46,656 nucleotides of DNA from Candidatus Thorarchaeota archaeon (lineage in GTDB: Archaea; Asgardarchaeota; Thorarchaeia; Thorarchaeales; Thorarchaeaceae): contig JBHLRS010000021.1 of NCBI GenBank assembly GCA_048882325.1, positions 6,140 to 52,795 of the forward strand, given 5' to 3'. Below, piece after piece: positions 2,291 through 40,900 of this stretch. A program made the translations under genes and the position numbers. Position 1 is the first letter of the stretch. Every line of letters begins with the position of its first letter. Below the pieces are notes generated by a model. It searched no databases and had not been told where the DNA came from. It saw only the letters and a program-made list of their open reading frames with translations.

Positions 2291-5200
2291 TTATCTTGTA
2301 CTTTGGATGAACTGTCTTTCTTTTCTTTGCTCTCGCTCCCATTTCTTTCTTTCAGAACGAAGCTTGAAAACATCTACATCCTTGTAGAGTAGACCTTCCT
2401 CTCCAGGCGGCATCTCTCTTTTAACCCGCTCCTTCTCTGGCGTATTTATCAAAGATCCACCGAATGCTGCCATATTCGCAAAGAAGCAGTAAGCATAGAT
2501 GGACCTTCGAGCGTCGAAATGGACTGCTTCAAAATCTGCAAAGGTTGGAGTAAAAGCAGGATTTAGGATTATATCAACAGGAGGTTCAGAATTCTTCAGC
2601 TCTACCCTTAAATCCATGTCTAGGAAATCCCGACAGATGACAATTGCAATCCTTCCAAACTGGGTATTACACACGATAGTCTTCTTAGGAAAAGAACCTA
2701 CATCTATCTGCTCCTTGAAACGCTTGCCTTCTATCTGAACAGTTGCTGGAATATGTTTCTCCTGTTTCCAGAGTATTCCTTCTGGGCCTATGACCACACT
2801 GATATTTCGTCTTGTTTCCAAGTCATGGTATGAACCTGGAACAATGTACATCCCATTGATATTCGCCAGATTTAATATGTCCTCTAGGAGTTCTTCATAA
2901 TTGAGATCTATGGCTAGTTCAGGAAAGAGCAAGATTTCAACACCTTCGGAATGAGCTGTGTCTATCATGCTTCTGACCTTTGACCGTACTTCTTCTACCT
3001 TCTCCTCCCGCAGACCAAGAAGGCCTCGGTTCTTCTCTTCATAGTTCTCATTCAGGAAGTCAGCATTTTCGGAAATGCCAATTTGAGCAATGCCAACTCT
3101 GCACTCCTTCCTCTCAACTTGAGGATGTTCTTTCAGCAGGTCTCTATAGACAATAGCGAATTTGCTGCCTGGTGTGCTCGCTGATAATCGCAATGTTCCC
3201 TCGGTGTATTGACGTACATCGCTTATTCTCGGAGAAAAACTTGATTCAACGGAACTAGCGGGAGCAATAATTCCCAACGCGCTTTTGGATACTGATGAAT
3301 CAAGGAGAGTATCAAGAGCTGAAACAAGTATGCTCTCTTCCTTTTCTAAAAGCTCCAGACGTTCAAGGACGTCTTTTTCCTTGTTTTCGTAACCAGCCTG
3401 TCCGAAGAGTTCCGCAGCTGACTTCAAGTATCTGTTTCCGATCCGCAGGAGCTTCCTCCGCTCATCCAAGTCTAGCTCCTCGTCAGCTTTCATCAAATGC
3501 CAAATCGCATCAAAGTATGTGGAGGTTGCCAATGCCCAGTTCGCTCCACTTTCGTAACCAGCCTTCTGGTATGAAGAGGATGCTCTTCGGAGTTTCGATT
3601 TTATTCGTGTGTATAACTCTGTTTTTACTTCAGCATCTGTGGAGTTATCGAATTTGCAGCCATACTCCAATGCTTGACAGAAGGCAGAGTTTCCTGATGC
3701 AAGAGCCTTCAGATTGCTCTCGGTAAAGATTTTGCTCGCTTTTGTGAACAGTTTTACCGCTTCCGAAAACCGGTCAGGATCCTGGTACTCTTCTGCAAGC
3801 TCCATGGTCTCCCAAGCTCTACAGAGGTTGTATATGGCTTCAAGTTCTCCTCTCTCTCGCTCGATGCTGATTAATGAGAAGACTTCTCTGAATTGGGAAG
3901 CGGCATGCGCAAATCTCTCAGCGGCCTCAAGATGCTTCCCTTGTTTGCCCAGAGATCGTGCACCTTCAATCTGGGCACGGGCAGAACAATAGCTCATTCT
4001 CGCACGGGCCAGTTTCACGAGCTTCTCGACTCGCCCTCTTTCTACTTTATCCATAGACTGAGTGAGTACTTCTTCCAGATTCCTCGTGGCTTTTTCGAAC
4101 TCCTCTCTAGCTACTTCATATTTCTGAGCGGTCTGCTTGTGTTTTTCCTGTTTGCTTAGTTGTTCTGCATCCTCCAGTAGAGCCCATGCAGAATAATACT
4201 GCGCTTCGTAACTATATCTCTTGAGTTTGCCCAAAATTTTACTTGCCTTCCGATAGTTCGCTTTTGCCTCCGCATGTGCTTCTCTCTTCTGGTGGCTCTT
4301 TGCCCTTTCAATCAATCCCCAAGCAGCAGAATAGTCAACCAGCTCTTGGACTCTCTCTTTAAGTGGTTCGTACAAGGTATCTTTCAAGGAAATCATATGA
4401 GCGTTCTGGGCTTTTTCGTAATGGTCTGCAGATGACAAATGACTACCAAGCTGGTCTTCTATGTGTGCTGTGCATATGTGGGCTGCGGCCTCATAGAAAG
4501 GATAGCCTCTTTCAGTGCTCTCCTTGATAACACGGATGAATGACTTCTTTGCCTCTATTAGTGGTTCGGTTTCCCCTGTTGTAGCGCCGAGCTCTTGGTA
4601 TAGAAGCCCTAACCTCATTTCTGCAAGAATTATACCAGTACGTGATTCTAATGCATGATTGATATACCTCTTGTGGGCATCTGTAGCATCAGTCAGCATT
4701 CTAGTCTTCTCATCTTTGTTCTCAGTAATATCTGCTAGGGTTTTATAGGCTCTGTAAAGAGATGAGTAGCCCGCTGCCTTGGTCCACCCTCCTTCGAATT
4801 TATCCGCGCTTTCTTCAGCCTTTCTTGCATATTCGACCATCTTCTCAGCATGCTCACTTCGGTCTTTCTTGGTTACTGCCAAGATAGCGAGTTGCGAGTG
4901 TGACCAAGTCAGTGTCTGATATGGCAGCGCAGTAATGGGCCCAAGAACAAGTTTCTTTAATCCCTCCTTCGAGTACTCAATGGCTATTTCGGCAAAGGAT
5001 TTTCTTTGCTCGGGAGCCACGAAGCTTCTCTGAGCAAGGTTTGCATAGCAGAGCGCAGGAAGGACGTATGCAATATGGCGCCATGCGGTGAATGAATCAT
5101 CATAAGTACGTCCGAGTTCAACAACCTCCTGAAGGTCATTGAAGATTCGCGTCTGGAGATACTCAAACCGTCCTCCAACCACACCGAGAAAATCCAGCCA

Positions 5201-6088
5201 GAAGAGACAGATAATCTTCAATGGTTTGTCCCCTGTACTGTCTGCATACATTAGCGCTTTTTCAAGCAGATTTAAGCCTTCATCAGCAAACTCTCTTTGT
5301 TGCTCTTCATCTTCCACGAATTGAAATCCAAAAAACCAATTCCAAGCACCAGCCCAGCCATAAATTGTTCCCAGAACTAAGAGATCATCACAATTCTCAG
5401 CGAGGTTCATACTGGTGTTGCACTTTTGAAGAAACTCTTTCCAATACTCTCGCCACTGTTCATCCCATCGAAAAGTCACTGCGAACATTTCAGCCCAACT
5501 TAACATCGATTCAGCGAACAGGGACTCCGCCATAGATTGAAAGTTTCCAACATCTCTTGAGAGCCGCCATGCCTCATCAGCAACATGTCGACCCTCTCGA
5601 TAAAGCTGTTCTAGTTCCTCTTGTCCTGAGGATAGAGTTACCACGTAAGACAATGCCCATGCTGCACGTCCGAGAATCCTAGCAAGACTCTCGCGATCGT
5701 TCTCTCTGGAATAAAGCTCGCTCGCTTCAATGAAACGCTCATAAGACTGTTTGAAAGCTTGTTTTGCCTTCAGGGCAGAATTAGCCAACATACCATTTTC
5801 AAGAAGAATTTCCGCCTTGCACTCCAAGTGGTTTGCTGCTTTCGAACATTGTCTGAATAGGTTGGCGGCTTCTTCGTAGGCTTTGATTGCATGCTTAGTG
5901 AAAACTATGTACTCTTCGACTTTGCTTGCGGTTCTTGAACTGTGCTGGCATGCATGTCCGAGCTTCCTGTAAGCATCAGCCGCTTCGTCAATTCTTCCCT
6001 TCTCCAGACATGCTTTGGCTTCCTGCTCATGTTTCTTTATCGTCTTGGTCCAGCTTAGAGCCTTTTTACCATTTTTAGCTGATTCCAA
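2291..6088 (-). CDS. 1265-aa TPR/SNAP-like helical-repeat protein with C-terminal carbon-nitrogen hydrolase (nitrilase) domain
   Basis: ~950 aa of Ala/Glu/Lys-rich helical repeats (e.g. HLEAAERFAHAASQF); C-terminal RVGIAQIG, LLFPELA (E1057), KQEKHIP (K1111), IVICRDF (C1152) = nitrilase E-K-C triad. Confidence 0.85.
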   Translation of the reverse strand: MESAKNGKKALSWTKTIKKHEQEAKACLEKGRIDEAADAYRKLGHACQHSSRTASKVEEYIVFTKHAIKAYEEAANLFRQCSKAANHLECKAEILLENGMLANSALKAKQAFKQSYERFIEASELYSRENDRESLARILGRAAWALSYVVTLSSGQEELEQLYREGRHVADEAWRLSRDVGNFQSMAESLFAESMLSWAEMFAVTFRWDEQWREYWKEFLQKCNTSMNLAENCDDLLVLGTIYGWAGAWNWFFGFQFVEDEEQQREFADEGLNLLEKALMYADSTGDKPLKIICLFWLDFLGVVGGRFEYLQTRIFNDLQEVVELGRTYDDSFTAWRHIAYVLPALCYANLAQRSFVAPEQRKSFAEIAIEYSKEGLKKLVLGPITALPYQTLTWSHSQLAILAVTKKDRSEHAEKMVEYARKAEESADKFEGGWTKAAGYSSLYRAYKTLADITENKDEKTRMLTDATDAHKRYINHALESRTGIILAEMRLGLLYQELGATTGETEPLIEAKKSFIRVIKESTERGYPFYEAAAHICTAHIEDQLGSHLSSADHYEKAQNAHMISLKDTLYEPLKERVQELVDYSAAWGLIERAKSHQKREAHAEAKANYRKASKILGKLKRYSYEAQYYSAWALLEDAEQLSKQEKHKQTAQKYEVAREEFEKATRNLEEVLTQSMDKVERGRVEKLVKLARARMSYCSARAQIEGARSLGKQGKHLEAAERFAHAASQFREVFSLISIERERGELEAIYNLCRAWETMELAEEYQDPDRFSEAVKLFTKASKIFTESNLKALASGNSAFCQALEYGCKFDNSTDAEVKTELYTRIKSKLRRASSSYQKAGYESGANWALATSTYFDAIWHLMKADEELDLDERRKLLRIGNRYLKSAAELFGQAGYENKEKDVLERLELLEKEESILVSALDTLLDSSVSKSALGIIAPASSVESSFSPRISDVRQYTEGTLRLSASTPGSKFAIVYRDLLKEHPQVERKECRVGIAQIGISENADFLNENYEEKNRGLLGLREEKVEEVRSKVRSMIDTAHSEGVEILLFPELAIDLNYEELLEDILNLANINGMYIVPGSYHDLETRRNISVVIGPEGILWKQEKHIPATVQIEGKRFKEQIDVGSFPKKTIVCNTQFGRIAIVICRDFLDMDLRVELKNSEPPVDIILNPAFTPTFADFEAVHFDARRSIYAYCFFANMAAFGGSLINTPEKERVKREMPPGEEGLLYKDVDVFKLRSERKKWEREQRKERQFIQSTR

Positions 6089-12829: not shown

Positions 12830-13975
12830 TCACTTCAGAGACCGTACCTCTGTAAATGGATGAAACTGCTTCCAAGCAAACCAGTACTCTTCCGAAACTG
12901 GCCACCTGACAAGATCATGCTTGATCTCCCCTTGTACCCACTTACCATGGAGATTCCATATAGTATGACTGACTTCATCCTGAACCTCCTCTTGATCTGG
13001 CAAGTACTCGAGTCTAAGCTGAATTCCTTCAACCTCAGCGTAGTACCCTCGAACAATATTGGTCTTAGAAACCAGTATGAGTTTCAGCTCATCATCTCGC
13101 ACCCAAATCTGCTTGAGCACATCCTCTTTTAGGTACGCAACATCCCCTTGAGTTCGAGGGACACCGATCACCAATGCTTTCTGTGGTAGACGGTCGTCGC
13201 GCTCTTTCCCTGGAACACCGGGAATCACATTCGATCGCATATAGAAATCCCATATGAAGGGCATGTGGAATGGACGGAGGTCTTTCTCTGGGGTGTGTAC
13301 CAATTGGATGTCCGGATAGGTCGCTTTTGCCATCGACCAAGTGAGAAGGTCCAGGTGAATCAATTCTAGCTGCCGAGGGTGAAGCTTGCCCACTAGACTC
13401 TCCCCAGTGGCTTGCTGCCAGAAGGTCTTGGTTCGCTTGTCAGCCATAACCATGTTGCCTTTGTAGAACCCACCAACGATGAAAGGTCCGTATCCTGTTA
13501 CGTCATAACCAATCCCTGTGTTGCATATGGGACAGAAGGTCACAAGGACACTTTTACTTCCAACGATATCATTGATGATATGATGCCATGACACAAAGCT
13601 GACAGGGTAGGCTCGTTGTACTTGGTCAACCTCAATCACGAGGACCGGTACATCTGGGGGTAGGAGGTCTTGCCTATCTGCTGGTTCGTATTCTGGTTGC
13701 AAAACAGCTCGAAATATCCGATGTGGGTGCAAAACCAAATTGATCGGGATTAGCACGATCTGAATCGCGGCTAGTGTTATCGGGATTGGTCTAAAATCTT
13801 GGATGACTATAACCAAGGTTAGGTAGAACAGCGCTAAGAGCCCGACAACATACACCCGGTATCGAAAGTGTAGATTCACCAGAGAAAGGGGAACTCTAGG
13901 ATTGAATGCGGAAATCATGTGGATGAACGTGATAAGAAGTATGGCAATCGTGAGAAACACGCCAATTAAGATCAT
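12830..13975 (-). CDS. DUF3179 domain membrane protein
   Basis: 3 N-terminal TMs; RAYPVSFVSWHHIINDIVG..VLVTFCPICNTG, MADKRTKTFWQQATGE, YWFAWKQFHP; AGGAG upstream of ATG 13975. Confidence 0.88.
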   Translation of the reverse strand: MILIGVFLTIAILLITFIHMISAFNPRVPLSLVNLHFRYRVYVVGLLALFYLTLVIVIQDFRPIPITLAAIQIVLIPINLVLHPHRIFRAVLQPEYEPADRQDLLPPDVPVLVIEVDQVQRAYPVSFVSWHHIINDIVGSKSVLVTFCPICNTGIGYDVTGYGPFIVGGFYKGNMVMADKRTKTFWQQATGESLVGKLHPRQLELIHLDLLTWSMAKATYPDIQLVHTPEKDLRPFHMPFIWDFYMRSNVIPGVPGKERDDRLPQKALVIGVPRTQGDVAYLKEDVLKQIWVRDDELKLILVSKTNIVRGYYAEVEGIQLRLEYLPDQEEVQDEVSHTIWNLHGKWVQGEIKHDLVRWPVSEEYWFAWKQFHPFTEVRSLK

Positions 13976-14125
13976 CGCAGAATCTCCTAATATAGTGCAG
14001 TTAGTTCTTTTCAAGATACACATAGTGGACATAATTTCTAGTTAGTCGAATATCTCGCCTTCTTGGAGAACTCATTTGTCTCGTTTATTCCGATTTATCA
14101 CCTTGACATATCATCAAAATGAGAA

Positions 14126-14347
14126 AGCCGCCTGAGTTTAAGCCTCGATAGAGGTTCAATTCTCTCGTCCGGGAACACTCTCTTTTTCGCAATTAATACC
14201 ATTGAACAGGCAGATAATCACTAAATGTTACCGTTCGTCATTCTGCCTGATGTGTCGTCTTAATCGGTCAGCCAACCTTGGAATGTGTACGGGGCTGATC
14301 TCGACACACTAAGCCCAGACGCTACCGAGCTTGCTCCTCAGACGGCC
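14126..14347 (-). ncRNA. Candidate ~222-nt structured non-coding RNA of unknown family
   Basis: Ends pair (GGCCGUCUGAG/CUCAGGCGGCU); further helices of 11, 8, 7+8 and 7-8 bp plus a 7-bp pseudoknot; G.U pairs favour the minus strand; TATA box 23 nt upstream; U-rich tail; no ORF. Confidence 0.7.
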
Positions 14348-14369
14348 TTAAACTATTCCACTAATTTCG

Positions 14370-14383
14370 TATTAAGCATTTCT
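14370..14383 (-). promoter_or_regulatory. BRE/TATA promoter for the candidate ncRNA
   Basis: Minus strand AGAAATGC-TTAATA ending 23 nt before the first paired G at 14347. Confidence 0.6.
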
Positions 14384-14519
14384 TCACGAGGGTTTAGCTC
14401 CTGAGGTTTTTGGTTCTAATTATTTGCACTATGGGTAAGAGAAAAAGATGCAGAATCAAGTTTAGAATGGAGAGTAATTTTGTCCTTCGCATCCAATTAT
14501 CCTTTGAACGAAGTTGAAC

Positions 14520-15170
14520 TCAGTATCCTGCTAAGATTTGAGCCATAATTCGGTTCTCTGCTTTCCGAAGGTGTTCTATCGTTGTTGCTCTGCTGATTCC
14601 AAGTATCTGTGACAGGTTTTCACTGCCTATTTTTCGAGGGTATTCATAGTATCCCATCTTCTTGGCTAGAATGAGTATCTCTTTCTGTCTCGCAGTAAGA
14701 CAGGACAGGACACCATGCGCACCATAGGTCGCTTTGTGAAAGCTTGTGCTTTCGATGGTCCCAATCAGCTTAATCACTGAGAGTAGTTTTTTCATGTTCT
14801 CCTGATCCGCGATGGCACTATAGACCCGCCTCTCTTCTGTGGCTCTTAAAGGGGTGTCCCAGACCACATCGATATCGAACTTCTTGACTATGGTTTCAAG
14901 CTCACGATATGGCTGTAGCCTCATTAGGCATGTATAGATATCATTCGTGGTCTCCAGAACAGTCAGAATCTCAGCTTCACGAGGAATCTCAGCGTCTTCT
15001 AAGGAGTACCCCTTCTTCATTTTGAATTCCGTGAGCATCAGGGCATCACCCCTCTTGAAATCGAATCTGAATAGTTCCAATCCTTCGATTGATTCAATCT
15101 TATCGAATATACCTCTCTGAGCCTTTCGGAACTGAGGGTTTGTGCTCAGCTCAATAGTGACTTTTCGCAT
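14520..15170 (-). CDS. HTH-10 (bacterio-opsin activator type) transcriptional regulator
   Basis: C-terminal LTARQKEILILAKKMGYYEYPRKIGSENLSQILGISRATTIEHLRKAENRI signature; start ATG 15170. Confidence 0.92.
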   Translation of the reverse strand: MRKVTIELSTNPQFRKAQRGIFDKIESIEGLELFRFDFKRGDALMLTEFKMKKGYSLEDAEIPREAEILTVLETTNDIYTCLMRLQPYRELETIVKKFDIDVVWDTPLRATEERRVYSAIADQENMKKLLSVIKLIGTIESTSFHKATYGAHGVLSCLTARQKEILILAKKMGYYEYPRKIGSENLSQILGISRATTIEHLRKAENRIMAQILAGY

Positions 15171-15269
15171 GTCCAGTAAACTGATTATAGCCTTATAATT
15201 AAACCCTAAATGCAAGGCAGCAGCTCTAGATGTTTATCTGCCCAATATTGACTCGTCCAAGAACCTGAA

Positions 15270-16713: not shown

Positions 16714-19700
16714 TCAGACTACCACTGTAGTATATTCATACCAGAAGTATGGATCAGTCCACATGTACGCATGATACAGTATAAAGGTCGCGATGAAATG
16801 CGATGGATAAAGAACCCAACCAGACCTGAATACTGGACCAGGAGGACCAGACTCTCCGACTTTCACGGAACGTTGACCCCACAACCCATCGAACTTTAAC
16901 CACCCTTGGTTGACTAAAAGTTCCATAGAGTACTGAGACATATCCTGTCGATTGTAAGAGCCAAGAGGTGTGAACCGACTCGCATGGCCTCCAAGACCCA
17001 CGTACACAACTGGATGATTAGTAGCCTCTTTTGACAGATCTCCGATAAACCATCCACTCTTCTTGATATGGTTGTGCCAAGAGTATCCGGCATCCAAAGG
17101 CACCAAAGCGTCCACGTCCTGGGACCCTTGTGGTGGCAATATCAGCTGGATCATTTCCCAGTCACCCTCATGCTGATTGACCCATAAATCATAGAGATAG
17201 AAGAACCAGTATTGGATCACGATGTAGTCATTGTAACTCGTGAACACATGTGCGTAAAACTTGAGACCATAAGTCGAGGAGTCCTGAACATGGTATAGTG
17301 GGTTAAGATCCAAGTAGGAATTGGTCCCAGCATATGCCTCTAGTTCTGCAGGTGTTGGGTCAAGGTCCTGGGGAATGCCAAAGAAGTCCATTAGAATAGC
17401 GTGGTCCAGAAAGTCTCGAATGTCGCGAGGATACCATGTCTCTAATACGTCGATATAGAGCTGAGGAGAAAACTTCTCAGCCAGAGCCATCTGTTCCTGG
17501 TACGAAAGCTCGTAGTCGTGGTATACGTAAAACCTGATATAGGCATCATCTGTGTCGCGGCTTGTACTCCCATCGTCACTCCCACTTGAGTGTGCCCATT
17601 GCTGGTAGTCCCCTGGCTGATATGCTGCAGCCTCTCTAAGATTGAAACCTGTTGTAGCTGTCTTGCCAATCCTAGCCAAGTCTAACTGGTCATCGAACTC
17701 AAGGTCGACATCCCATGCTTGCACATCCACCCATACTGTAGGTTGGTTGTCAGGAACATTGGACACGAACAATGGAGAATCATTGGAGCTATATGTCGAG
17801 ATATCGTATGCAACAGGCACCTCACTGTTCATCCAGTTCCCAGTCGACCATTGGTCCTGAGCATATACTCTGAAGAACGGTTCAGCGTTTCTATTGCCCT
17901 CGAGTGCTGGATATTCGATTGTCAGGGACTCGTATTTGATCTCAAGGCCCCACCAGTGGACAACGAAATAGGGGACCCTTATGGTCTTGGTCTTTATGAC
18001 GAGTTCGACATCTATCGGGTCTTCAACCTCGAATCTGTAGATCTGTACCTTCACCAGAAGGTCATGCAGTGGGTCAATGTCTTCACCATCGAAGTAACTA
18101 TCATTGTCACTGTCGACGTCGATAGCATTGATTAACCCATCACCATCAGAATCGATGTTCCAGTCTTTCTCAACCTGAGAGGCAAAGAAACCACCTATTA
18201 CAAGTGGACCGTCGAAGAGTCCGTCTGCGTCAGAATCTGCGGCGTTCTTATCGGTTCCATAGAAGTCCTCCATCACGTCTGACCTACTGTCACCGTCAGC
18301 GTCTGGTACTGTCACAATGAGATTATTGTTCTCTTCATCAGCCTCATCAACCCGATGGTTGTGATCGATCTCTATACTTAGGATGTGTGACCCCACTGGC
18401 CTGTCAGCGAGTGGGATAGTGAAATCAATGCTTGTGTGGGCTTGAAGTCCGCTACTATGGAAGTGTCCAAAGCCATAAGTCACAGTCAGGTCCCGTATCT
18501 GGAACGAAAGATCGTTTGAGTCAACGTCGCCTCTGTTCTCAACTGTCATAGTCAGAAAGACAAGTTCACCGTCAGTGGAGAATGACACATTTTCAGGTGC
18601 CACTAGCAGGTCAGGTGGCTTTGGTACCTGTGCAATTATGACCACAGTATCGGTATCCTTACCCCCATCATTGTCAGTGACAGTGAGAGTCACGTAGTAG
18701 GTTCCTTGTCTTTGAAAGACATGGCTTGTCGTCGCACCACTGCCTGTATCACCATCCATGAAGTCCCAGTCATATGAAACTATCGAGCCATCGGGGTCAG
18801 TGGATCCAGGAGTAGCAGCGAAGTTCACACGAGAACCAGTGAACACTTCCTGGTCCATGCCGGCTTCTGCGATAGGTAACTGGTTGAGAACCGTAACCGT
18901 AATAGTGGTTGACCCGGTCTCACCATCATCATCTGTCACTATGAGTGTGACATCATACTCACCAGTCTGCGAGTACGTATGTGTTGGTTTGGCTTCCACT
19001 GCAAAGGTTCCATCACCAAATGACCAACCATACCCCACGACCTCTCCATCCTTGTCGTACGACTTGGTGCCAAAGAAATGCGCCACAAGGTTCCTGTACG
19101 CATCTCTCGCAAGTCCTATGCGAGCTACCGGCGGTGCGTTGAGTGGGTTCGTCCCAGCTTGGACCTCATCATAGTCAGAAACTCCGTCTCGATCCGTATC
19201 CGGGTGGTTTGGATCTGTCCCATAGGTATTAACCTCCTCATCGTCGTAGAGACCTTCCTGATCAGTGTCGTTCGACAGGGGGTTTGTTCTATAGAGGTAC
19301 ACTTCTTCCCAGTCTGTGAGATTATCAAAGTCAGTGTCTGGAAGCAGCGGATCAGTATAGTATCTGTTCACTTCCATCCCGTCTATAAGCCCCTCTTCAT
19401 CCGTGTCAGATTTTGTCGCGTTCGTCCCGTACAAATAGACCTCCAGTCCGTCTAAGAGCCAGTCTGCATCAGAATCAGGATTGTTTGGATCAGTGGAGTA
19501 GGCTAGCTCTTCGTTGTCAGCTAGTGCATCAAAGTCAGTATCGGGTCTGTCAGCCCTGGTCTCATTCAGGGATGGCTCAAATTGCCCATTCGCATTCGCA
19601 TCCTCGATCCCGTCTAAGAGTGTGTCCCCGTCTGTATCGGGATTCAACGGGTCCGTTATTATCGGGGGACCTACAGGAACAGTATTGGGATCAGAGATAC

Positions 19701-22056
19701 CTATCTCAATGCCATCAGGAATTCCATCCTTATCCGTATCTGCAACAGTGGGGTTGGTCTCACCGGCAGTCAGACTTCCATCGAGGTTCAGGTCCTCGTC
19801 ACCATCGCGAATGTAGTCCCCGTCTGTGTCCGGGTTGAGCGGGTCGGTCTGTGTACCATTATAGTTGCTTAAGAGCTCAATATAATCGAAAATTCCATCT
19901 TTATCGGTGTCTCCACTATTGGGGTTAGGATCGACTGTGTCAGCGTCGCCATCCCGGTCTGTGTCGATATCAAACGGGTTGGTTCCAATATCATTCACCT
20001 CAAAGCCATCAGTGAACCAGCCTGAGGAGCCGGGAGCAAACCCATCATCCGCGCGGTAGCCGTCCCCATCAGTATCAATGTCCATTGGATCCGATATGCC
20101 TCGGGGAACATTGAGCCACGACGACACAATCACTGTACCGTTGTCATAGGAAACAAACTGTGTGTCCGAGAAGTAATCGAGTTTCATTAGTAGAACCTTG
20201 TCGACAAAGATGTCGTTCAATTCACCTAGAGCCCTCAGCTCGATGTCGATGGTGTCTTCCTGGAGCAGGTCGAACTTGAGCGCAAAGGCCCATTCGTAGA
20301 GATTGACATCCCTGACAATAACACCATAAACAACCTGTCTCACAAGAGCGTATTGGACTGGTGGAACTGTCACAGGATCTCCGCCTAGAGTGATATCGAC
20401 TTCCATTGTGTTACTGGTATTCAGGGACGTGCTCAATGCGCGAACAAACACAACATAGGTGCCATTGGGAAACACAAAGGATGGGTCAGAAATGAAGGCG
20501 ACACGACCGTCAGGGAGCGGGTTGACATGTTTGCTATTGCTTGCATTCACATTATCAAAGATCTGTGTAGGACTCCACGCGAAGTCCTCAACCTCATACC
20601 AGTAAGAGTTCAGGACAGACTCGCGGCCTTCAATGATTGCGTCGCCATCAGTGTCTTGGTCAAGTGGGTCTGTCAACTCTGAGTTGATACTGTACATTCT
20701 GATGATCGCAACTCGGTCAATGACAACCCATGGATGACTAGCATTCACAATCATCTGGAGCTGGCCACTACTCACGTTAAAGAATGGTGTTGAGTACCAG
20801 CGATAGATGGCAGTCAGGAGATGCATGTCACTGTTAACAACCATGACACCATCCTGCTCTATAGACAACATTATCGACCTATTGGCTGATTCAGGAAACT
20901 GTGATCTCGCTCTCACAAAGAACTTGTAGTCAGCCTCAGAGCTTGGCACAGACGAGTTGAACACCATCCCCGGACCGGATGAGAACACTGCACGTCCATT
21001 CCTTGCATCAGGATCGTTTCCAAGCACTCCCTGTTCTAGATCCAGGTCCTCTGTCTCGTACCAATAAGCCCAGGTCGTGGCCTCATTTCCATCAGTAATT
21101 CCGTCGTCATCCGCATCGCTGTCGATTGGAGCAGGGTCCCAGCCATCAATTACGTTGTCATCGTCACTGTCATTATCAAGGGGATCAGCTCCCAGAAGAA
21201 TCTCGTCACCATCAAGCAAGAGGTCATTGTCAGAGTCCGGGTCGAGAGCATTAATCAGGGAGTCCCCATCAGTGTCTACATTCCAGTCAGGTTCAGAGCC
21301 ATCATTCAGCCCGTCATCTTCTGAGTCCATGTCGAGTGGATCGGTTCCATACTGGACCTCTTCTCCATCCAGTAATATATCGAAGTCTGTATCGTTGAGC
21401 GTGGGATCAGTTCCGTAGATATACAGTTCATCCCAATCTTTGAGGGCGTCCTGGTCGGTGTCATTCAGCAACGGGTCCGTGCCCAGTTGTACATACTCCT
21501 CCCAGTCAGTGAGCATATCATTGTCAGTATCCTGATCATTTGGGTCAGTACCGACTGTGTTCACCTCAGTTCCGTCATCCAGCCCTTCAGCATCACTATC
21601 TGGGTCCAGTGGGTCTGTGTAGAATACCTTGACTTCTTCACCATCACTGAGGGTATCATTATCAGAGTCATAATAGGTAGGGTCTGTTCCAAGGGTGACT
21701 TCCTCGTTGTCCCAAAGACCGTCACTATCTGTGTCCACTAACGTGGGGTTGGTACCATACTGGTACTCCTCTAGATTGGTGAGTCCGTCTCCGTCTTTAT
21801 CCAGCTGAGCGTCATTTGGATCGTTCATGTCCAATCCGTATAACATCTCCCAGCTATCGGGCATTCCATCATTGTCCCCACCCATTGGTCCTGCTCCCCG
21901 TGGAAGAAAATAGAAAATCCCAAAGGATGACCCAATCACAATGACGATTATAGCAATGGCGATGCCACTTCTCTTTGTGTCTCTCAGAAGCGCGCTCCTA
22001 ATCCGTGACAAAGTAAACTCCTCGTTTTGAACTTTGGTTTCAGGATGTCGATGCAT
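16714..22056 (-). CDS. 1780-aa N-anchored surface protein: DxDxDG Ca-binding (TSP3-like) repeats, 2 PKD, CARDB-like and C-terminal Vps62-like domain
   Basis: TM at ~aa 32-52; many GTDPxxxDTDxDGLxDxxE repeats; WSFGDG and WDFMDG PKD motifs; DHNHRVDEADEENN CARDB motif; IVIQYWFFYLYD..HEGDWEMI. Confidence 0.85.
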   Translation of the reverse strand: MHRHPETKVQNEEFTLSRIRSALLRDTKRSGIAIAIIVIVIGSSFGIFYFLPRGAGPMGGDNDGMPDSWEMLYGLDMNDPNDAQLDKDGDGLTNLEEYQYGTNPTLVDTDSDGLWDNEEVTLGTDPTYYDSDNDTLSDGEEVKVFYTDPLDPDSDAEGLDDGTEVNTVGTDPNDQDTDNDMLTDWEEYVQLGTDPLLNDTDQDALKDWDELYIYGTDPTLNDTDFDILLDGEEVQYGTDPLDMDSEDDGLNDGSEPDWNVDTDGDSLINALDPDSDNDLLLDGDEILLGADPLDNDSDDDNVIDGWDPAPIDSDADDDGITDGNEATTWAYWYETEDLDLEQGVLGNDPDARNGRAVFSSGPGMVFNSSVPSSEADYKFFVRARSQFPESANRSIMLSIEQDGVMVVNSDMHLLTAIYRWYSTPFFNVSSGQLQMIVNASHPWVVIDRVAIIRMYSINSELTDPLDQDTDGDAIIEGRESVLNSYWYEVEDFAWSPTQIFDNVNASNSKHVNPLPDGRVAFISDPSFVFPNGTYVVFVRALSTSLNTSNTMEVDITLGGDPVTVPPVQYALVRQVVYGVIVRDVNLYEWAFALKFDLLQEDTIDIELRALGELNDIFVDKVLLMKLDYFSDTQFVSYDNGTVIVSSWLNVPRGISDPMDIDTDGDGYRADDGFAPGSSGWFTDGFEVNDIGTNPFDIDTDRDGDADTVDPNPNSGDTDKDGIFDYIELLSNYNGTQTDPLNPDTDGDYIRDGDEDLNLDGSLTAGETNPTVADTDKDGIPDGIEIGISDPNTVPVGPPIITDPLNPDTDGDTLLDGIEDANANGQFEPSLNETRADRPDTDFDALADNEELAYSTDPNNPDSDADWLLDGLEVYLYGTNATKSDTDEEGLIDGMEVNRYYTDPLLPDTDFDNLTDWEEVYLYRTNPLSNDTDQEGLYDDEEVNTYGTDPNHPDTDRDGVSDYDEVQAGTNPLNAPPVARIGLARDAYRNLVAHFFGTKSYDKDGEVVGYGWSFGDGTFAVEAKPTHTYSQTGEYDVTLIVTDDDGETGSTTITVTVLNQLPIAEAGMDQEVFTGSRVNFAATPGSTDPDGSIVSYDWDFMDGDTGSGATTSHVFQRQGTYYVTLTVTDNDGGKDTDTVVIIAQVPKPPDLLVAPENVSFSTDGELVFLTMTVENRGDVDSNDLSFQIRDLTVTYGFGHFHSSGLQAHTSIDFTIPLADRPVGSHILSIEIDHNHRVDEADEENNNLIVTVPDADGDSRSDVMEDFYGTDKNAADSDADGLFDGPLVIGGFFASQVEKDWNIDSDGDGLINAIDVDSDNDSYFDGEDIDPLHDLLVKVQIYRFEVEDPIDVELVIKTKTIRVPYFVVHWWGLEIKYESLTIEYPALEGNRNAEPFFRVYAQDQWSTGNWMNSEVPVAYDISTYSSNDSPLFVSNVPDNQPTVWVDVQAWDVDLEFDDQLDLARIGKTATTGFNLREAAAYQPGDYQQWAHSSGSDDGSTSRDTDDAYIRFYVYHDYELSYQEQMALAEKFSPQLYIDVLETWYPRDIRDFLDHAILMDFFGIPQDLDPTPAELEAYAGTNSYLDLNPLYHVQDSSTYGLKFYAHVFTSYNDYIVIQYWFFYLYDLWVNQHEGDWEMIQLILPPQGSQDVDALVPLDAGYSWHNHIKKSGWFIGDLSKEATNHPVVYVGLGGHASRFTPLGSYNRQDMSQYSMELLVNQGWLKFDGLWGQRSVKVGESGPPGPVFRSGWVLYPSHFIATFILYHAYMWTDPYFWYEYTTVVV

Positions 22057-31917: not shown

Positions 31918-34900
31918 TCACTTTTCTCTCCGATGGATTCTGATGTTTCCTCCTTCCAAGTATCCATATGGATTGAAGCCAGCTTCATGCCATAGAAGTC
32001 CATTTTCGTCATAGACTCTCATTTGGAATACGTCTTCTTCACCGGTGCAATCATTGTCCCATGCGTCTACTTTGATGACATGATTTTCAGCACTCCAAAG
32101 ACACTCGAATGTCTTGAAGTTGAACTGTAGGATAGATACTGTGGCCTCAAAGTATGCATGATTATCAACTATTGCTAAGCCTATCCATTCGTTGCTCTTG
32201 ATGATGACTAACCAGTCACCATCCCTGTATATGTAGATGAAGCGACCGGTCAAGGTTCCGTCTGATTTGTACTTGACGACGAAGCCAAAGTGTCCTTTGT
32301 GGCCGCTAGAGTCCAAAATCCATCCGCCGCCAGTCACAAAGTCCCCAGATGGCTCATAAATTGTGAGCGTGACCGTTTCTGAGTCTGGACCTTGATAGTA
32401 GTCATTGTGATCAGCTTCGAAACTGACTACTATGAGGTAGGTTCCTGCGGGGAGGTTAGCTATTTCAATGAGAGCCACACCTACACCATCGACATCCGTG
32501 ACTCCTACCATGTGGGGACCTTCCACAAGAATGGGACTTTCTACGTCCATTTCATTTGAGTAAATTGTGAAGGTGATGTAAATCATGGTCAGGTCACCCC
32601 AGTGGCCATCGTCATCATCAAAGACTGTCGCTCTTAGTTCGAATGTTTCGAGAAGACTTGACACAACTGTAGAGCCAGTATAGCTAGCAGTAGCCTGCTC
32701 CTTCTCAAGTACAAAAGTAACCTCTGTCGAGGCGCTTAGATACACACCATCTGATTCGAATGTAGCAGTCAGCTGATAGACTCCTGCAGGCTGGTCTAGG
32801 ATGATCGTGGCACTTGCAAAACCGTCCGTTCCTGTCACAGCTGAGATGGTCTGTGCACCAACGACAAAGATCACAGTCCTACCCGCGAGTGGAAATCGGG
32901 TTGCAAGGTCAATGAGCTGAGCTTCCAAGGTGATGGAATCTGAGTAGTTTCCGGATGTATCACCACTGTAGATGACACCTGCTGCATTGACCACAACTGA
33001 GAGGGACTCAGTTGTCCCCTCATTGCCAGCCACATCGAAGCCGCGATATGAGATAGTGTGTGCTCCAATATCTGGTACGGTGAATGGGGACATGTATTGA
33101 ATCCATTCTCCCGAGTCTATGCGATACTCAATTCTATTGACACCAGAGGTTGTGTCTGTTGCCTCTAAAGCGAAATCAGTAGTCGTGGATACATAAGTTG
33201 GATCGAATCCATAGGAAGGTGTTCCAATGACGAGATCGGTTGTGGGAGCTGTCTTGTCAATATAGATCTCGATGGCCTGCGTCGATTCCATGTTTCCAAC
33301 ATTGTCTGTTGCGTTGAAGTAGACCGTTGTTAGTCCTTCAACAGACAATGTGAATGGACCTTCGTAATCGTTCCAGACGATTCCGTCCAAACTATATGCG
33401 ATCAGATTGACACCCATAATGTCATCTGTCGCGGTCAGAGTCACATCAACATCTGACACATACCAACCTGCCAGCCCTAAGACTCCATCCAACTCTGGAA
33501 CAGTGACAGGTGGTAGGATGTCTACCTCGACGGGAGCAACATTTGTAGTCTCAATATTACCCGCAACATCAACGGAATAGAAGAGGACATCCACGAGTCC
33601 TCCACTGCTCAAAGTGATAGGAGTGCTATAGGTCAGCCAGGTTATTCCATCAAGGCTGTACATTGTGTTGGCAACGCCAGAGAGTGAATCAGTGGCAGCC
33701 AGAGTCACTATAGAACCTAAGTCGGGTACCTGGACATAAGTCAAGGTAGTTTCAGGAGGGGTCTTGTCAATGAATAGTCGTACGACCCATTGGTCAATAT
33801 TGTTAGTCACATCAAATCCAAGTACATCTATCTTGTAGTTATCGTACTCTCCAGATATCGTGAGTAGTATCTCAGCTTTAGCAACACCTGAGAAATCATA
33901 GTATAGAGGTTCATACTGATCCTCCAATTTAATTAAGACATAATCCACTCCAGATAGCAAATCGGTTAGTGTCACATTCATAAGGACATCAGATGTATAC
34001 CACCCATTATCGCCAAGTGTGCCAGTCAGTTCAATAAGGCAATCAGGTGCAGTTCCATCAATCTTGAGTGAAAGGTACTCATTCGTTTCTTCGACATTTC
34101 CTGCAACATCTGTTGATCTATAGTAGATAGTATGATCTCCATCCTCGTAGAATAGAAATGGATCAGTGTAAACATACCATGTAACTAGGTCAAAGCTATA
34201 TTCTGTCAATGCCACTCCAGACAGTCCATCTGTGGCTGGAAATACGAACTCTACTGGTGCCTCGTACCACCAACCATGTGGAACACCTAGAAACGGAAAT
34301 ATTGTGACGGGAGCGGTTGTATCAATCATGAGTATCCGGTTCTCAAATTTGTTCCATCGGATGTCCTGGACCGTTACCTCTATGGTGATTTGACCATCAA
34401 TTGGAATATAGAAGGTAAACAGTTTGCTCTTAATGGACCCATCACCATGATAGACTTCAGATTCGAGGAAATCGCCAGAATAGACCATGCAATCTACGAA
34501 GTAGAGTCCTGATGCCGTATCAGTCACACTGATTGTCAGTGTGCCATCAGAGATATACCAGTCATTGAGACCAAGTATGCCGTCATAGCCAAACTGTCCT
34601 GCAGGATACTCCGTATCCTTCTTTGCTACATCATATTTGGTCTCTTCTACATTCCCCACACTGTCAGTGGAGTAGAAGTAAATCGTTGTTTCGCCCTCGG
34701 TCGTTACACGGAATGGTTCTGTATAGACAATCCAGTTCGTCAAGTCAGTGCTATAGACTGTTTCCACTACTGATGAGAAATCATCTGTGGCTGTCAGTGT
34801 GACTATGATGTTTCCGAAGAACCAGTCATCGATAGGCATGAGGTCTCCAAGTTCTTCTGAGAATGAGATGACCGTCACAGGAGGCGTGTTGTCTACGATT

Positions 34901-37900
34901 ATAGACTCCATGTTGATGGGGCCACTATTACCAGCAACATCAACTGAATAGTAGTAGACATCAACGATTCCTCCAGTCAATGTGAATTCTGATATGTATT
35001 GCACCCAAGTGACCATATCATCAATGCTGTATAGTATGTCAGCCACTCCTGAGGTTGCATCTGTGGCATCCAGGGTCACATTCACTCCTTCAGGTACTCT
35101 CTCAGTGGCAATTGTGGTTTCAGGTGATGTTGTGTCGATGCTAATGGAAATGGTTTCAGAATCCTGCTGTCCTGCATAATCATAGACATCAACTATTATT
35201 TGCAGATCTCCACTTTCCACAGTAATAGTATATGTGAAAACGTGTGAGTTTCCTGGCGAAGGAACTTCCTCATAATAGTCCAATGTTCCCTGATGATCCA
35301 CCACTGATAATGATGCCTGCAGGACTCCTGACACAGTATCCGAAACTGTGGCTGTTACCGTGACCACTGATATATACCATCCGTTAGTGCCCACAGTTCC
35401 AGAGATGTCAAGAGCTATTTCAGGCGGTGTCGTGTCAAGAATGAAGGAGTATGACTTTGCAGATTCCGTATTCCCGACCGCATCAATGGAGTAGTAATGG
35501 ACTATATTTTCGCCCTCTGTATAGATGTCGAACGGACCCGAATAAGTGCTCCAAGTTTCACCATCGAGGCTGTAGAATGATTCAGATATACCAGAGAGAG
35601 GATCACTGGGTATCAGAGTCACAGTTGCCTTGAAAAACAGATAGTTCTCAAACTCAAACTCTCCAACCACTGAGATCTCGGTACTTGGTGGCGTTTCGTC
35701 AATGTTGAGTGTGATTAGAGCGATCTCAGCTGTATTACCAGCTTGGTCAATGGCTGAAGGCACAGTCACATAGATTATGCCATCTACAGGGATGGGGATT
35801 GTAGTTTCGAAAGTCAAGACTCCATTGGGAATGAAATCACTAAGCTGCCAAGTGCCAGCTTCATCAATTAAAAGGTAATCGCCGCTTCCAATGCCTGATA
35901 CCCAGTCTGTCACATTGATTGTCACTGAAACAGCTGACGTATACCATCCATTGAGATCTGGTAGTCTTTCAGGTGTCAGTGTAATTTCTGGAGCTGTCTT
36001 GTCTAGATAGATCTCGTATGTTTTCGTAGTTTCCACATTTCCAGCAATGTCTGTTGAGTTGAACTGCAACGAAGTTACTCCTTCTAATGAAAAAGCAAAA
36101 GGTCCAGTGTATGTTGTCCAAGGAATACCATCGTAACGATAAGCAGTTGTAGCAATGTCAGATTCTCCATCAATGGCTGATAATGTTACAGTAACATCAG
36201 CAGAATACCAGCCATTGAAGTCAGGAACCCTATCCAAGCTCAAAGTAGTCGAGGGGAGCGTCTTGTCGATATAGATAGTCGTGATGTTATATGCATAGTT
36301 TGCTTCAAAATCGGGGGGCCAGTAAATTCCTGTGTTGTCACAAATCCATACTTCTACTGTATGAGGACCCTCTGTGGTGAAGGTGTGACGAAATTCCAAA
36401 TCCAAATTATAATGCAAGTCAGGATCTATGATTCGACCTTCTTGGATTGTCCCACCATCAATTCGGTAGTACATCACATAACCAGTTGCGTCACCTACAT
36501 CAACAAGACCCGACAGAGCATCACTTGCTTCAGCTGTTACGAGGACATTCGATGAATACCAGTTATTCGTACCTGTTGTACCACTGAATATTACAGTCAA
36601 CTCTGGCGGTGTTTGATCAATGCCGAAGGTCACCTCATGAACAGTTTCTGAGTTCCCAGCCATATCAATTGAGTACCATTCCAAAATATGGACACCTTCA
36701 GTGGTGATAGTTTGTAATGGAACCCGTCCTTGAAACTCAGGATACAATATCCATGGGTCTCCGACCAACCAGGGGTCAATCTGTTCCAGGTTCAGGTATT
36801 GCCAAGGACCACCATCAATTCTATACATCACTCCATATAGAGGAGGATAGACTGAGTCATCAATAAGTGCAAATCCAGACAATGCATCTGATGAGAACTC
36901 CCAGTCGTAACATATTGTGACTGGATCGTTAGTCCATCCAAATGGGTCATTGCCATTATAGCCCCAATCATCAGTTTCCAGTGTCATCACTGTTTCTGGA
37001 GCAGTCATATCTATCCAGAAGCGTGTAAAGTTGGATGCACAATTCGCAGTCATATCGGGTGGTATGTAGTAGCCTGTGGAGTCGCAGACCCAAGCCTCGA
37101 ATGTATGGACACCTTCTGAGGTGAAAGTATAACTGAAGTCCAAAGACATTGGGGAGTCAATATCAAGCAAGCGACCACTCTGGTATCCACCACCATCTAT
37201 TCGATAGTAGAACTCGAAACCAAATCCATCACCCACATCAACCAAGCCTGAAAGTGTGTCACTAGCTTCAATGGTCACAATAACATTAGATGAAAACCAA
37301 TGATCAGTGATTGAGGTCCCAGTAATAATCACTTCCAACTCAGGTGCGGTCAAATCTATTCCAAAGATCACTTCATGGGTGGATTCAGTATTACCAGCCA
37401 TATCTATCGAATACCATTCTAAAGTATGGATTCCTTCACTATTGATTGTCTCTAAAGGAACCCGGCCTTGAAACTCAGGATACAATATCCATGGGTCTCC
37501 GACCAACCAGGGGTCAATCTGTTCCAGGTTCAGGTATTGCCAAGGACCACCATCAATTCTATACATCACTCCATATAGAGGAGGATAGACCGAGTCATCA
37601 ATAAGTGCAAATCCAGACAATGCATCTGATGAGAACTCCCAGTCGTAACATAGTGTCACGGGGTCGTTAGTCCAGTCAAAAAGATCCCTGGCATTATTGT
37701 TCCAATCACCGGTTTCTAGTATCATCGATGTTTCAGGAGCTGTCTTGTCAATCTTGAAAACTAACTCATCGGTGATCCAGTTACCTGCGACATCAGAAAC
37801 ATTCATCCAAGCCCAAAGTTCTCCACTCTCTATGGAGGTTGTAAGTATGAACTCAGCACTATCTAATCCATTATAGTAGGTTTCCTCGAGGATATACTCA

Positions 37901-40900
37901 GTCCCGTGTGCATTGTAAAGAATGAAATAACACCACCCGACTCCTGATATTCCATCTGCTATAGAAAATGTCACTGCGACATCTGACACGTACCAATCAT
38001 TGTCACCTAAATCTCCACTCAGAGAGATGACAGGTACAGGAAGCTCTTTGTCAATCAGAATCTCTAGAGTCTTTGTTGCTTCCACATTTCCCGCAAGGTC
38101 GGTTGAGTTGAATTCTATTGTTTTTCCACCCTCTAGCGAAAAAGTGAATGGTCCGGTGTACTCAGTCCACGGTATACCCTCATATCTGTAGGCGGTTGTT
38201 GCCACACCAGAGCCCGAATCTACAGATTCCAGAGTAACAATGACATCTGCTTGATACCAGCCAGCAAAGTCAGGAGGTCTGTCTGGACTCGCAGTAGTTA
38301 CTGGTGGAGTTATGTCAAGAACTATTACAGTCAATGATGAAGTACCAATACCTCCATCGTCATCTGTCACTGTCAGAGTCACGAGATAGACTCCAGGATT
38401 TGTATACACATGTGTTGGTGAAAGCGTTCCTGTCACTACTGGTGAACCATCTCCAAAGTCCCAGACAAAGGTGTGCGTATCAGATGCTCCAGGGTCGGTG
38501 AAACTACCACCAAAGATGACTATATCGCCCTCATCGATTGTCTGGTCAGGCCCAGCATCAACTACAGGAGCTACGTTGTTCACGTACATTGTCATCGTAT
38601 CAGTACCCACTCCTCCATCATCATCAGTCACTGTCAGGGTGACAACGTAGACCCCATTGTCCACATAGATATGAGTTGGATCCAGAGTCCCTGTAACTAC
38701 AGAAGAGCCATCACCGAAGTCCCACACTATCGTATGAGTATCAAGAGCCCCTGGATCTGTGATGAGCCCATGAAATGCAAAACTCATTCCTTCCTCAGTC
38801 CATAAATCAGGTCCTGCATAAGCAGTTGGAGCCACATTGTAGACTGTCAAGGTTGTTGAGGCGGCAACGTAGAATTCACCATCAGTGACTTCGACAGTCA
38901 CAGTACCGAAGTAGTCCTCATACAAGGTATAAGCGACTGTCGGGACAGTACTCCAAGCCGTGTCCCAATCACCATCACCATCAATATCCCATCTGAATTG
39001 CAGTTGATCTCCTTCTATATCAGTAGAACCAGATGCATCAAAGGTTACCTCTGCACCTTCACCAATGGTGTAAGGTCCTCCAGCATTCGCCACAGGAGCA
39101 TCATTCACCGAGTTCACTGTGACCGTGACCGTTCCAGTGGCAGTGCCTCCGTTACCATCCGATACAGTGTAAGTAAACGAGTCTGTGCCATAGAAGTCAG
39201 GGAATGGAGAGTAGATGATTATTCCTGCGTCTATTACTACAGAACCATGTAGTGCAGGTCCCACTGAATCAATAGTCAAGGCATCCCCATCAGGATCAAT
39301 GTCATTTTCCAACACAGGAATCGAAACTGGATGGTCTTCGTCTGTTACTGGTGTATCATCATTCGTAACAGGAGCATCATTGACTGGGGTCACTGTGATA
39401 AACACTGTCGCAGTGGCAGTCAATGTTCCATCTGATACTGTGTATGTGAACGAGTCTGGTCCATTGTAGTTAGCATCTGGAGTGTAGCTGAAAAGGCCCC
39501 CTATATACCATACAGTACCATGTAATGGGGATTCAACTGAAACAATTGTGAGATGATCTCCATCGACATCATCCACCACAAATAAGTCGTCCACCATAAC
39601 ATCTTCATCAGTGACGACATAGACATCATCAGCCACAGGAGCATCATTCACCGAGTTCACTGTGACCGTGACCGTTCCAGTGGCAGTGCCTCCGTTACCA
39701 TCCGACACGGTATAAGTAAACGAGTCTGTGCCATAGAAGTCAGGGAATGGATAATAGGTGATTATTCCTGCGTCTATTACTACAGAACCATGTAGTGCAG
39801 GTCCCACTGAATCAATAGTCAAGGCATCCCCATCAGGATCAATGTCATTCGCCAACACAGGAATCGAAACTGGAGTGTCTTCGTCCGTTACTGGTGTATC
39901 ATCATTCGTAACAGGAGCATCATTCACTGAGTTCACTGTGATGGTCACTGTCGCAGTATCTGTAAAGGTCCCATCACTAACCTCGTAAACAAACAAGTCG
40001 TCGCCGTAAAAGTTCAGATCAGGTGTATATGTAAAAGACCCATCTGCAAGCAATGTCAGAGTACCATGTGAAGGTCCACTCGCCAGCGTGACTACCAGAA
40101 GCCTTTGAAAGATAGTCCCATCGTTCTCCAAGATCCCAGGAGCTAAAATGGACAATGGATTGTCCTCATCTGTGATGTATGCATCATCAAGTACCGCAAC
40201 TGTGACATCTGGTGACACCCTGGGGTATGGGTCCATATTGCCCTCGAAGTAGTATGGAGTGTCAAAGATACCGTTGTTGTCAGCGTCAAGACCTCCATGG
40301 AGCCACCAATAGTTAAACCGGAATACATTATCGGTCCCAGTGTCTATGGCACTGTAGTCATACCAATCCAGGCTCTCGATAAACACATTCCACATAATGA
40401 TGTTGGAAGTTCCACCATCTAGATAGATGCTACCGTGGTTGTTAATGCATGTATTATTATACACCGTAGTGTCTATACAACTTCTGAGATAGATACTTCC
40501 TTGGACCGGTGGATGGAGCTCAAATAGGTTATTTCCATTGACGGTGTTATTTGCTACCATGTTGGACTCACAGTTTTGGAGTTCAATGCCTGCATAATAG
40601 TTCTCATTACAGGTGTTGTCGTGTATGGTGTTTTGGTTACTGTGATTGAGAGCGATACCAGAGTTTCCATTGCCATTGCAGGTATTGTTGTATATGGTGT
40701 TTTGGTCACTGCTACTGACAGCGATACCATAGTATCCATTGTAATTACAGGTGTTGTTTTTTATGATGTTAAAAGTTGAAGGAGTTTCGGAATCTCGGGG
40801 ACTAAGAAAGATACCAGGATATGTATTGTAGTTGCAGATATTGTCACTCACAGTATTGTGATCACCTGACAAAAAGATCCCGTACCCATTGTTGTTGCAG

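Follow-up and report, generated by a model that had tools for sequence, protein, structure and literature searches.

A pseudoknotted archaeal RNA family, predicted to be spliced into circles and often encoded beside a candidate PD-(D/E)XK-fold nuclease

Introduction

The window analysed here is a stretch of 46,656 nt from Candidatus Thorarchaeota archaeon (assembly GCA_048882325.1, contig JBHLRS010000021.1, positions 6,140 to 52,795). A gap separates an HTH_10 gene (14520-15215) from a DUF3179 gene (12830-14032), and in it a first-pass annotation, made from the letters alone, read a discrete, independently transcribed and pseudoknotted RNA of about 222 nt on the minus strand. It was proposed that this RNA might belong to a new archaeal class, and three roles were offered: ribozyme, RNP component, or regulatory leader of the DUF3179 gene. 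The locus raises the question of whether an RNA gene is present and, if so, what the mature RNA looks like and what it does.

We approached this question through comparison with 86 genomes of the same family and with other archaea. Our analyses show that 14347-14126 on the minus strand is a real, stand-alone non-coding RNA gene of the Thorarchaeon, that it represents a real and new RNA family, and that the 222-nt RNA is very probably the precursor of a 193-nt circle and not a mature linear RNA. The usual neighbour of the RNA, judged from a structural model, is an unnamed PD-(D/E)XK-fold nuclease. Our best reading, which we put forward tentatively, is that the gene makes a circular RNA partner that may hold this nuclease inactive in the manner of an RNA antitoxin, and that the copy in the present genome is an orphan.

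Results

A stand-alone RNA gene

The transcription unit comprises the following features.

14126..14347, minus strand: precursor RNA of about 222 nt, matched over its full length by covariance model R1, with matches in 48 of 86 family genomes.
14370..14385, minus strand: predicted archaeal promoter, with a purine-rich BRE (14385-14378) and a TATA-like TTAATA (14375-14370), recognised by sequence and conservation.
14116..14125, minus strand: pyrimidine-rich tail, a putative terminator, kept in homologues.

The gap is indeed free of open reading frames, and the pairings listed in the first-pass annotation can be read on the minus strand, on which the 222-mer folds better than its shuffles (z -3.36, against -2.15 on the plus strand). 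BLASTN similarity among homologues begins at 14385, at the BRE/TATA box, and ends at the U-rich tail. The promoter and tail proposed earlier are borne out by the homologues, 35 of 39 of which have a TATA-like box 23-25 nt before the outermost helix, P1, while the 10 nt that follow P1 are 86% C/U; the tail is a probable terminator. A precursor of about 222 nt would almost certainly be transcribed from this TATA promoter, given its sequence and conservation. The genome, which is 93% complete, contains one close copy of the RNA, and no repeats or target-site duplication were found; because of this single close copy and the missing duplication, the RNA is not a MITE.

Elsewhere in the window, three long genes on the minus strand encode a 4830-aa ORF (31918-46410), a 1780-aa protein with PKD, TSP3 and CARDB domains that is probably a surface protein (16714-22056), and a 1265-aa protein whose sole recognised domain is a C-terminal carbon-nitrogen hydrolase (2291-6088).

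The RNA resembles no catalogued family. Rfam 15, applied at E-value and gathering thresholds to the window and 28 loci in linear order, gave chance matches and one unrelated tRNA only, with no match to self-cleaving ribozyme families, and in open-access papers we found no description of the RNA family or of the RNA-nuclease pair. Identity with SRP, RNase P or 5S RNA, canonical or permuted, was considered and rejected, separate genes for RNase P (contig C3), SRP (C25, partial at the contig end) and 5S RNA (C46) being present in the genome. A resemblance to the RNase P core (GGCUUA beside a bulged helix) was likewise set aside, since RNase P RNA is encoded elsewhere in this genome and the core in question is a splice signal, described below.

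Distribution

BLASTN retrieves the element from 21 of the 86 family genomes. The covariance model extends this to the 48 genomes and to a second Asgard family, and homologues are also found in Bathyarchaeia/Thermoproteota, which places the RNA in two archaeal phyla; sequence-only HMMs missed the Bathyarchaeia RNAs and the covariance model recovered them. Distribution is patchy, with no copy of the RNA in 13 of the 23 family genomes of high quality, and gene neighbourhoods are highly variable, with flanking genes that change from locus to locus among 21 loci.

Bathyarchaeia genomes carry several dispersed copies. At loci L239-L268 one to several stand-alone RNAs with the splice signal lie far from the nuclease gene, and those at L240-L247 and L268 end just upstream of small ORFs. 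RNAs of the one-arm Bathyarchaeia type also occur, with no nuclease nearby, in a Thorarchaeon (L290, genome G051) and in another Asgard family (L289, genome G218), possibly through horizontal transfer. Viral contigs contained no nuclease, and matches to the RNA pattern in them were at chance level.

A paralogous class, with a member in the present genome (contig C9:16-237), keeps the promoter, arms and pseudoknots without the splice signal and is never found beside the nuclease; these RNAs are probably linear. Its members (L185, which is the contig C9 copy at 16-237, L208, L210, L213, L216-L229 and L232-L235) share a promoter under strong conservation and possess the two arms with their two pseudoknots.

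Secondary structure and pseudoknots

Structure was tested on a sequence-only alignment of 39 homologues with a lowest pairwise identity of 44%. Pairs were counted for the first-pass model and for a model derived from the alignment columns, and same-branch compensatory changes on the tree were compared with a rate-matched null. The following elements emerge.

14337..14347, minus strand: 5' strand of P1, pairing with 14136-14126; an outer processing stem with predicted release as a small hairpin; 98% of cells paired, 6 compensatory events against 0.4 expected.
14144..14329, minus strand: P2, 14329-14322 with 14151-14144; the stem would be capped by the junction loop after ligation; 99.6% paired, 7 compensatory events.
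14251..14308, minus strand: arm A, consisting of a stem, an asymmetric A x GAUUAAGA loop, upper stems and an apical loop; 97-98% paired, 11 compensatory events.
14239..14285, minus strand: pseudoknot A, CAUUC 14285-14281 in the arm A loop with GAAUG 14243-14239; 99.5% paired, double changes at 4 of 5 pairs.
14170..14233, minus strand: arm B, a duplicate of arm A, here with some decay of the internal loop; three helices with 18 compensatory events between them, and a repeated loop motif in the alignment.
14154..14207, minus strand: pseudoknot B, GUUCAAU 14207-14201 in the arm B loop with AUUGAAC 14160-14154; 84% paired, double changes at 7 of 7 pairs.

The P values for pseudoknots A (0.0008) and B (0.0004) are optimistic, because the structure was derived from the alignment used for counting; the Bathyarchaeia set serves as the independent check.

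Several helices proposed earlier hold up under this comparison: P1, the lower stem of hairpin A, which is conserved by covariation, and the pseudoknot between GUUCAAU and AUUGAAC. P2 survives in its inner half, whereas its AAGC/GCUU part is out of register, with one pair formed in 4 of 39 homologues and no compensatory events. The helix named P3 (CGUCUGGG/CCCGGACG) and hairpin B both pair less consistently (77% and 67% of cells) and, across the 39 homologues, gained no same-branch compensatory changes; both can pair in the present sequence, but their strands belong instead to the long covarying arm B. Pseudoknot A was missing from the earlier model. The short helix that closes arm A (alignment columns 39-41/107-109) is weak, at 73% paired, and we leave it out of the model.

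Arms A and B duplicate each other: in both, an A faces GAYWAAGA, and the apical loop pairs back with a strand immediately beyond the base of the arm. A K-turn was considered for the A x GAYWAAGA loop and dropped, as a Watson-Crick register fits better; we leave it as an unnamed hinge. Bathyarchaeia possess a one-arm form with a circle of 106-110 nt, in which the equivalent of pseudoknot A covaries independently. Other Bathyarchaeia copies have two arms, or enclose a third kind of interior fold between the same termini. This third fold (L057, L060, L082, L085, L094, L104, L105 and others) combines predicted circles of 131-137 nt and a conserved GAU..CAUCAAA with the same P1, splice signal and junction. 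In sequence, all forms have only the splice site and junction in common.

A splice signal and a predicted circle

Between P1 and P2 the two strands read GAGC-AAG-CU and AG-GCUU-AAA, that is, a 4-bp helix and two 3-nt bulges. This bulge-helix-bulge (BHB) arrangement is the real geometry of the part of P2 that failed above, and it is what the splicing endonuclease of archaea canonically recognises as its substrate (PMC7714728, PMC4731332). Three further features are predicted from it.

14330..14336, minus strand: BHB 5' strand, helix GAGC 14336-14333 and bulge AAG 14332-14330, predicted cut 14331/14330; central helix 99-100% paired in both phyla.
14137..14143, minus strand: BHB 3' strand, helix GCUU 14143-14140 and bulge AAA 14139-14137, predicted cut 14138/14137; supported by motif conservation and circular joints.
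14138..14330, minus strand: mature circular RNA of 193 nt with junction GCUUAA/GCU, from the predicted cuts and head-to-tail contig joints in relatives.

The splicing endonuclease cuts after the second base of each bulge, and this rule, applied to the position of the BHB, gives the predicted ring of 193 nt from 14330 to 14138. The motif in one sequence is no evidence, because a BHB with a 10-bp stem arises 472 times by chance in the present genome; the evidence lies in its conservation and in circular contigs. The BHB is perfect in 38 of 39 Thorarchaeota homologues, and a model-free scan recovers it upstream of Bathyarchaeia nuclease genes. Apparent BHB matches of 316-330 nt in L064, L067 and L069 were rejected since they overlap ORFs.

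RNA-library contigs of close relatives cover only 14134-14333, although missing cover outside the RNA is uninformative because the flanks differ among relatives. These contigs contain four head-to-tail joints (3 metatranscriptome-labelled runs from 2 studies); they are assembled sequences, mostly from relatives of 90-95% identity, and one of the three runs is on record as RNA, the other two being guessed to be RNA. One contig of 224 nt consists of a 194-nt ring, with one inserted base, plus a 30-nt circular-unitig overlap. Ring length alone fixes the cut only to within a 3-nt shift; in X2 record 5, the letters GGGGGCUCGU/ACC agree with the junction that the BHB predicts for a copy of the L011 type and differ from the shifted alternative. 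Neither the head-to-tail joined form nor an exon-ligated empty allele occurs in any of the 86 genomes.

The enzymes that such processing would require are encoded in the present genome, which has two EndA-domain (splicing endonuclease) genes, RtcB, and 18 tRNA introns called by ARAGORN. The ends of the precursor would fold as a BHB, whereupon the tRNA-splicing endonuclease would cut both bulges and RtcB would close the 193-nt ring. We regard this as very probable from known archaeal biochemistry and the enzyme genes of this genome, the conserved motif and circular contigs being contributed by close relatives. The ring would then fold into one or two pseudoknotted arms, as traced by covariation, on a stem with a tip made by ligation.

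With the covariation and these RNA-library contigs of relatives, and with no match in Rfam, the original proposal of a discrete, independently transcribed and pseudoknotted RNA of a new archaeal family is supported.

The ligation junction

The junction is conserved beyond what splicing demands, as BHB geometry requires no particular bulge letters. All 26 nuclease-linked Thorarchaeota copies have GCUYDG/GCU (consensus GCUUAG/GCU), and nearly all Bathyarchaeia copies keep it too, UUCG variants included. Once ligated, the junction may form pairs again, so that a C(UUAG)G tetraloop would cap the P2 stem. A C(UNNG)G junction is found in 26 of 26 linked copies against 3 of 13 unlinked ones, a contrast that is statistically weak and close to a single event because the drifted orphans come mostly from one clade. 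The other ten unlinked copies, including that of the present genome (UUAA), have drifted at the junction while keeping the BHB.

A neighbouring nuclease

In about half of the loci first collected, a 240-aa ORF ends at the RNA promoter. Its protein has no sequence match in Pfam, NCBIfam, PADLOC or the PDB. A structural model (pLDDT 91.6) matches PD-(D/E)XK proteins best, with Z 9.5 for 3dnx and 9.2 for XisH, and the invariant residues of the family are E/D/ExE and K..RY.

Within the family, the RNA lies at most 1.5 kb from 22 of 25 whole nuclease genes, in tandem, divergent or convergent orientation, and in the second Asgard family it lies beside all three. At 45 of 80 nuclease loci in Bathyarchaeia/Thermoproteota it is upstream and always divergent (17 of these trained the covariance model, and 4 score weakly). 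Dependence appears to run one way: every family genome with a whole nuclease gene carries the RNA (24 of 24), and 24 more have the RNA without such a gene, the present genome being one of them. The nuclease occurs without a neighbouring RNA in 34 genomes; in 29 of them the RNA is encoded at another place, frequently more than once. The other five, with an apparently intact nuclease and no RNA detected, are MAGs of 0.8-2.2 Mb, and the model used, R2, recognises the third fold poorly. Three other orphan RNAs are preceded by remnants of the end of the nuclease gene. At L058 and L061, truncated or decayed 5' halves of the RNA stand behind an intact promoter, upstream of apparently intact nuclease genes.

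The nuclease family extends to Nitrososphaerota and Metallosphaera. Distant homologues, such as that of Metallosphaera, have no clear adjacent RNA, the one match (L281, E 0.006) being weak. The L281 element (3142-3294, minus strand), in a Thermoproteota genome, is a divergent BHB RNA with a predicted circle of 122 nt, convergent with a distant nuclease homologue.

Six loci contain a second ORF of about 240 aa beside the nuclease/RNA pair (L011:1908-2666, L015:1868-2641, L017:2269-3075, L014, L018 and L023), with no match in Pfam, PADLOC, NCBIfam or Atlas. It could be a third component or plain synteny.

Discussion

Relation to known systems

The RNA has the marks of a BHB-spliced circular RNA: BHB geometry, a junction seen in RNA-labelled contigs and not in genomes, and a genome that encodes both splicing endonuclease and RtcB. 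Its closest precedent is the permuted SRP RNA of Thermoproteus, a stand-alone gene with a BHB formed by leader and trailer, circularised by splicing endonuclease and RtcB so that ligation makes a structural element (Plagens et al. 2015, PMC4731332). The present family shares the stand-alone gene, the leader/trailer BHB, the predicted EndA/RtcB circle and the element created by ligation, but differs in having no SRP match, a different fold, a patchy distribution and linkage to a nuclease gene. Archaeal tRNA introns, pre-rRNA circles and the HVO_1309 5'-UTR intron possess the hBHBh' motif and circularise the excised part (PMC7714728, PMC3326292, PMC12558985). The same canonical hBHBh', with its 4-bp helix and two 3-nt bulges, is present here; in contrast to those cases, the flanks are only an 11-bp processing stem and not a tRNA, rRNA or mRNA, and the conserved tertiary structure lies entirely within the circle, which appears to be the product.

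As an RNA-nuclease pair, the system invites comparison with the type III toxin-antitoxin systems ToxIN and AbiQ and with AbiF/AbiFr, in which a nuclease gene stands beside a structured, pseudoknotted and repeated ncRNA that can persist without the protein (PMC12737573). The new pair has each of these properties. However, the protein has a PD-(D/E)XK fold and no family match to ToxN, AbiQ, CptN, TenpN or AbiF (HEPN), and the RNA has its own promoter, lies in any orientation or in trans, has one or two arms in place of tandem short repeats co-transcribed upstream of the toxin, is circular, and is processed, by prediction, by host splicing enzymes; inhibition is here something we infer.

HEARO and omega-RNA with IscB or TnpB resemble it as ncRNA-nuclease pairs with a pseudoknot and variable genomic context, and circular omega-RNA isoforms without a BHB are known (PMC12558985). 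Unlike OMEGA/HEARO and TIGR systems, the present one has no RuvC, HNH or Nop-domain effector, no variable guide and no target match, nor does it have an Rfam match or IS200/IS605 ends. The nuclease itself shares a restriction-endonuclease-like core with SPO1766 (3dnx, Z 9.5), XisH (2okf, Z 9.2), AF1548 (1y88, Z 8.7) and CdiA-CT (4g6v, Z 6.3), from which it is set apart by identities of 11-15%, an extra N-terminal helical hairpin and an INHS motif.

Proposed function and its rivals

Among the three roles suggested earlier, an RNP component fits best. A ribozyme is also a candidate, but the best-conserved part of the RNA, its core, is accounted for as the target of the protein splicing endonuclease. 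Gene linkage and conservation of the junction suggest that the ring probably binds the nuclease, by way of its junction loop and arms. That binding restrains a toxic or defensive nuclease, in the manner of an RNA antitoxin and by analogy with type III systems and AbiF/AbiFr (PMC12737573), is a more tentative step, to which the one-way dependence points.

Several observations speak against this reading, among them the five genomes with an apparently intact nuclease and no detected RNA, and the distant nuclease homologues that have no clear RNA beside them. Antitoxins tend to be labile, while a ring is stable. Conservation of orphans also points to a role independent of the nuclease, since orphans and BHB-less paralogues keep the promoter, arms and pseudoknots and Bathyarchaeia keep dispersed copies.

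Linkage, one-way dependence and junction conservation would look the same if the circle were an obligatory cofactor or scaffold of an active RNP nuclease and not an inhibitor; it would activate or position the enzyme, in the way that omega-RNA serves TnpB. A stable ring with covarying tertiary contacts would suit a structural subunit, and identities among the RNAs track those among the nucleases (Mantel rho 0.64, n=19), as is expected from shared descent too. Yet a cofactor without its enzyme should decay, and 24 genomes hold the RNA alone; furthermore, there is no variable guide segment, the ends being ligated and both apical loops taken up by pseudoknots, and matches to the RNA elsewhere in its own genome are not above chance. 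We consider such a cofactor unlikely.

Equally unlikely, in our judgement, is that the circle has its own job, as a ribozyme, a ligand-binding RNA or a decoy for another host protein, with the nuclease in an accessory role, processing, reopening or turning over the circle. This would accommodate the persistence of the RNA, found as circles, in lineages that have apparently lost the nuclease, as well as the arms, pseudoknots and promoter of the BHB-less paralogue and the several copies per Bathyarchaeia genome. The arm, with its long stem, asymmetric hinge and loop paired back to the base, bears a general likeness to ligand-binding folds. Against one conserved catalytic core stand the patchy presence of the RNA and the third interior fold behind the same termini, and the only sequence kept across all forms is that of the splice site and junction.

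Among archaeal introns, those of rRNA form BHB circles and come with homing nucleases, and the RNA and nuclease might by the same token be a selfish mobile unit, in which an intron-like BHB circle moves by reverse splicing or homing and the free-standing nuclease serves as the mobility enzyme. Variable neighbourhoods, patchy distribution, several orientations and the multiple dispersed copies in Bathyarchaeia would all suit such a unit, but it is improbable given that no exon-ligated allele exists in the 86 genomes, that the flanks are a self-contained, intergenic hairpin with its own promoter and not a host gene, that the present genome has only one close copy and no target-site duplication, and that the RNA was not found in viral contigs. 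A mobile BHB intron with a homing endonuclease was rejected on the first two of these grounds.

Lastly, a linear leader or riboswitch of the DUF3179 gene, which is on the same strand with its first ATG 94 nt downstream, or a MITE-like inverted repeat with paired ends and no RNA function, is very improbable indeed: flanking genes differ between loci and DUF3179 lies downstream only here (1 of 21), so that the leader reading fails, while the terminator-like U-rich tail conserved after P1, the strand-specific, G.U-tolerant covariation, two pseudoknots, circular contigs and lack of repeats argue against both.

Significance

Known archaeal BHB circles are by-products or intermediates of tRNA, rRNA or mRNA processing, or a rescued housekeeping RNA in the case of the Thermoproteus SRP RNA. 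The family described here appears to exist in order to make a circle; it occurs in two phyla, one of which holds the Asgard relatives of eukaryotes, and has a named candidate partner. On balance we favour, with modest confidence, a new class of archaeal RNP in Asgard archaea and Bathyarchaeia, in which a dedicated circle with a recognition loop made by ligation would bind and control a PD-(D/E)XK nuclease, as antitoxin or cofactor. As an RNA-nuclease pair it would be categorically new if binding holds. Should the ring inhibit or activate the nuclease, RNA would here control a nuclease by means of a protein fold and an RNA topology absent from the papers and libraries searched. Through such a circular RNP, the activity of the nuclease would depend on how the splicing and ligation enzymes of the cell are faring. 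The question of what circular RNA does in prokaryotes becomes testable with one protein of 210-240 aa and a minimal ring of 106 nt, the one-arm form of Bathyarchaeia.
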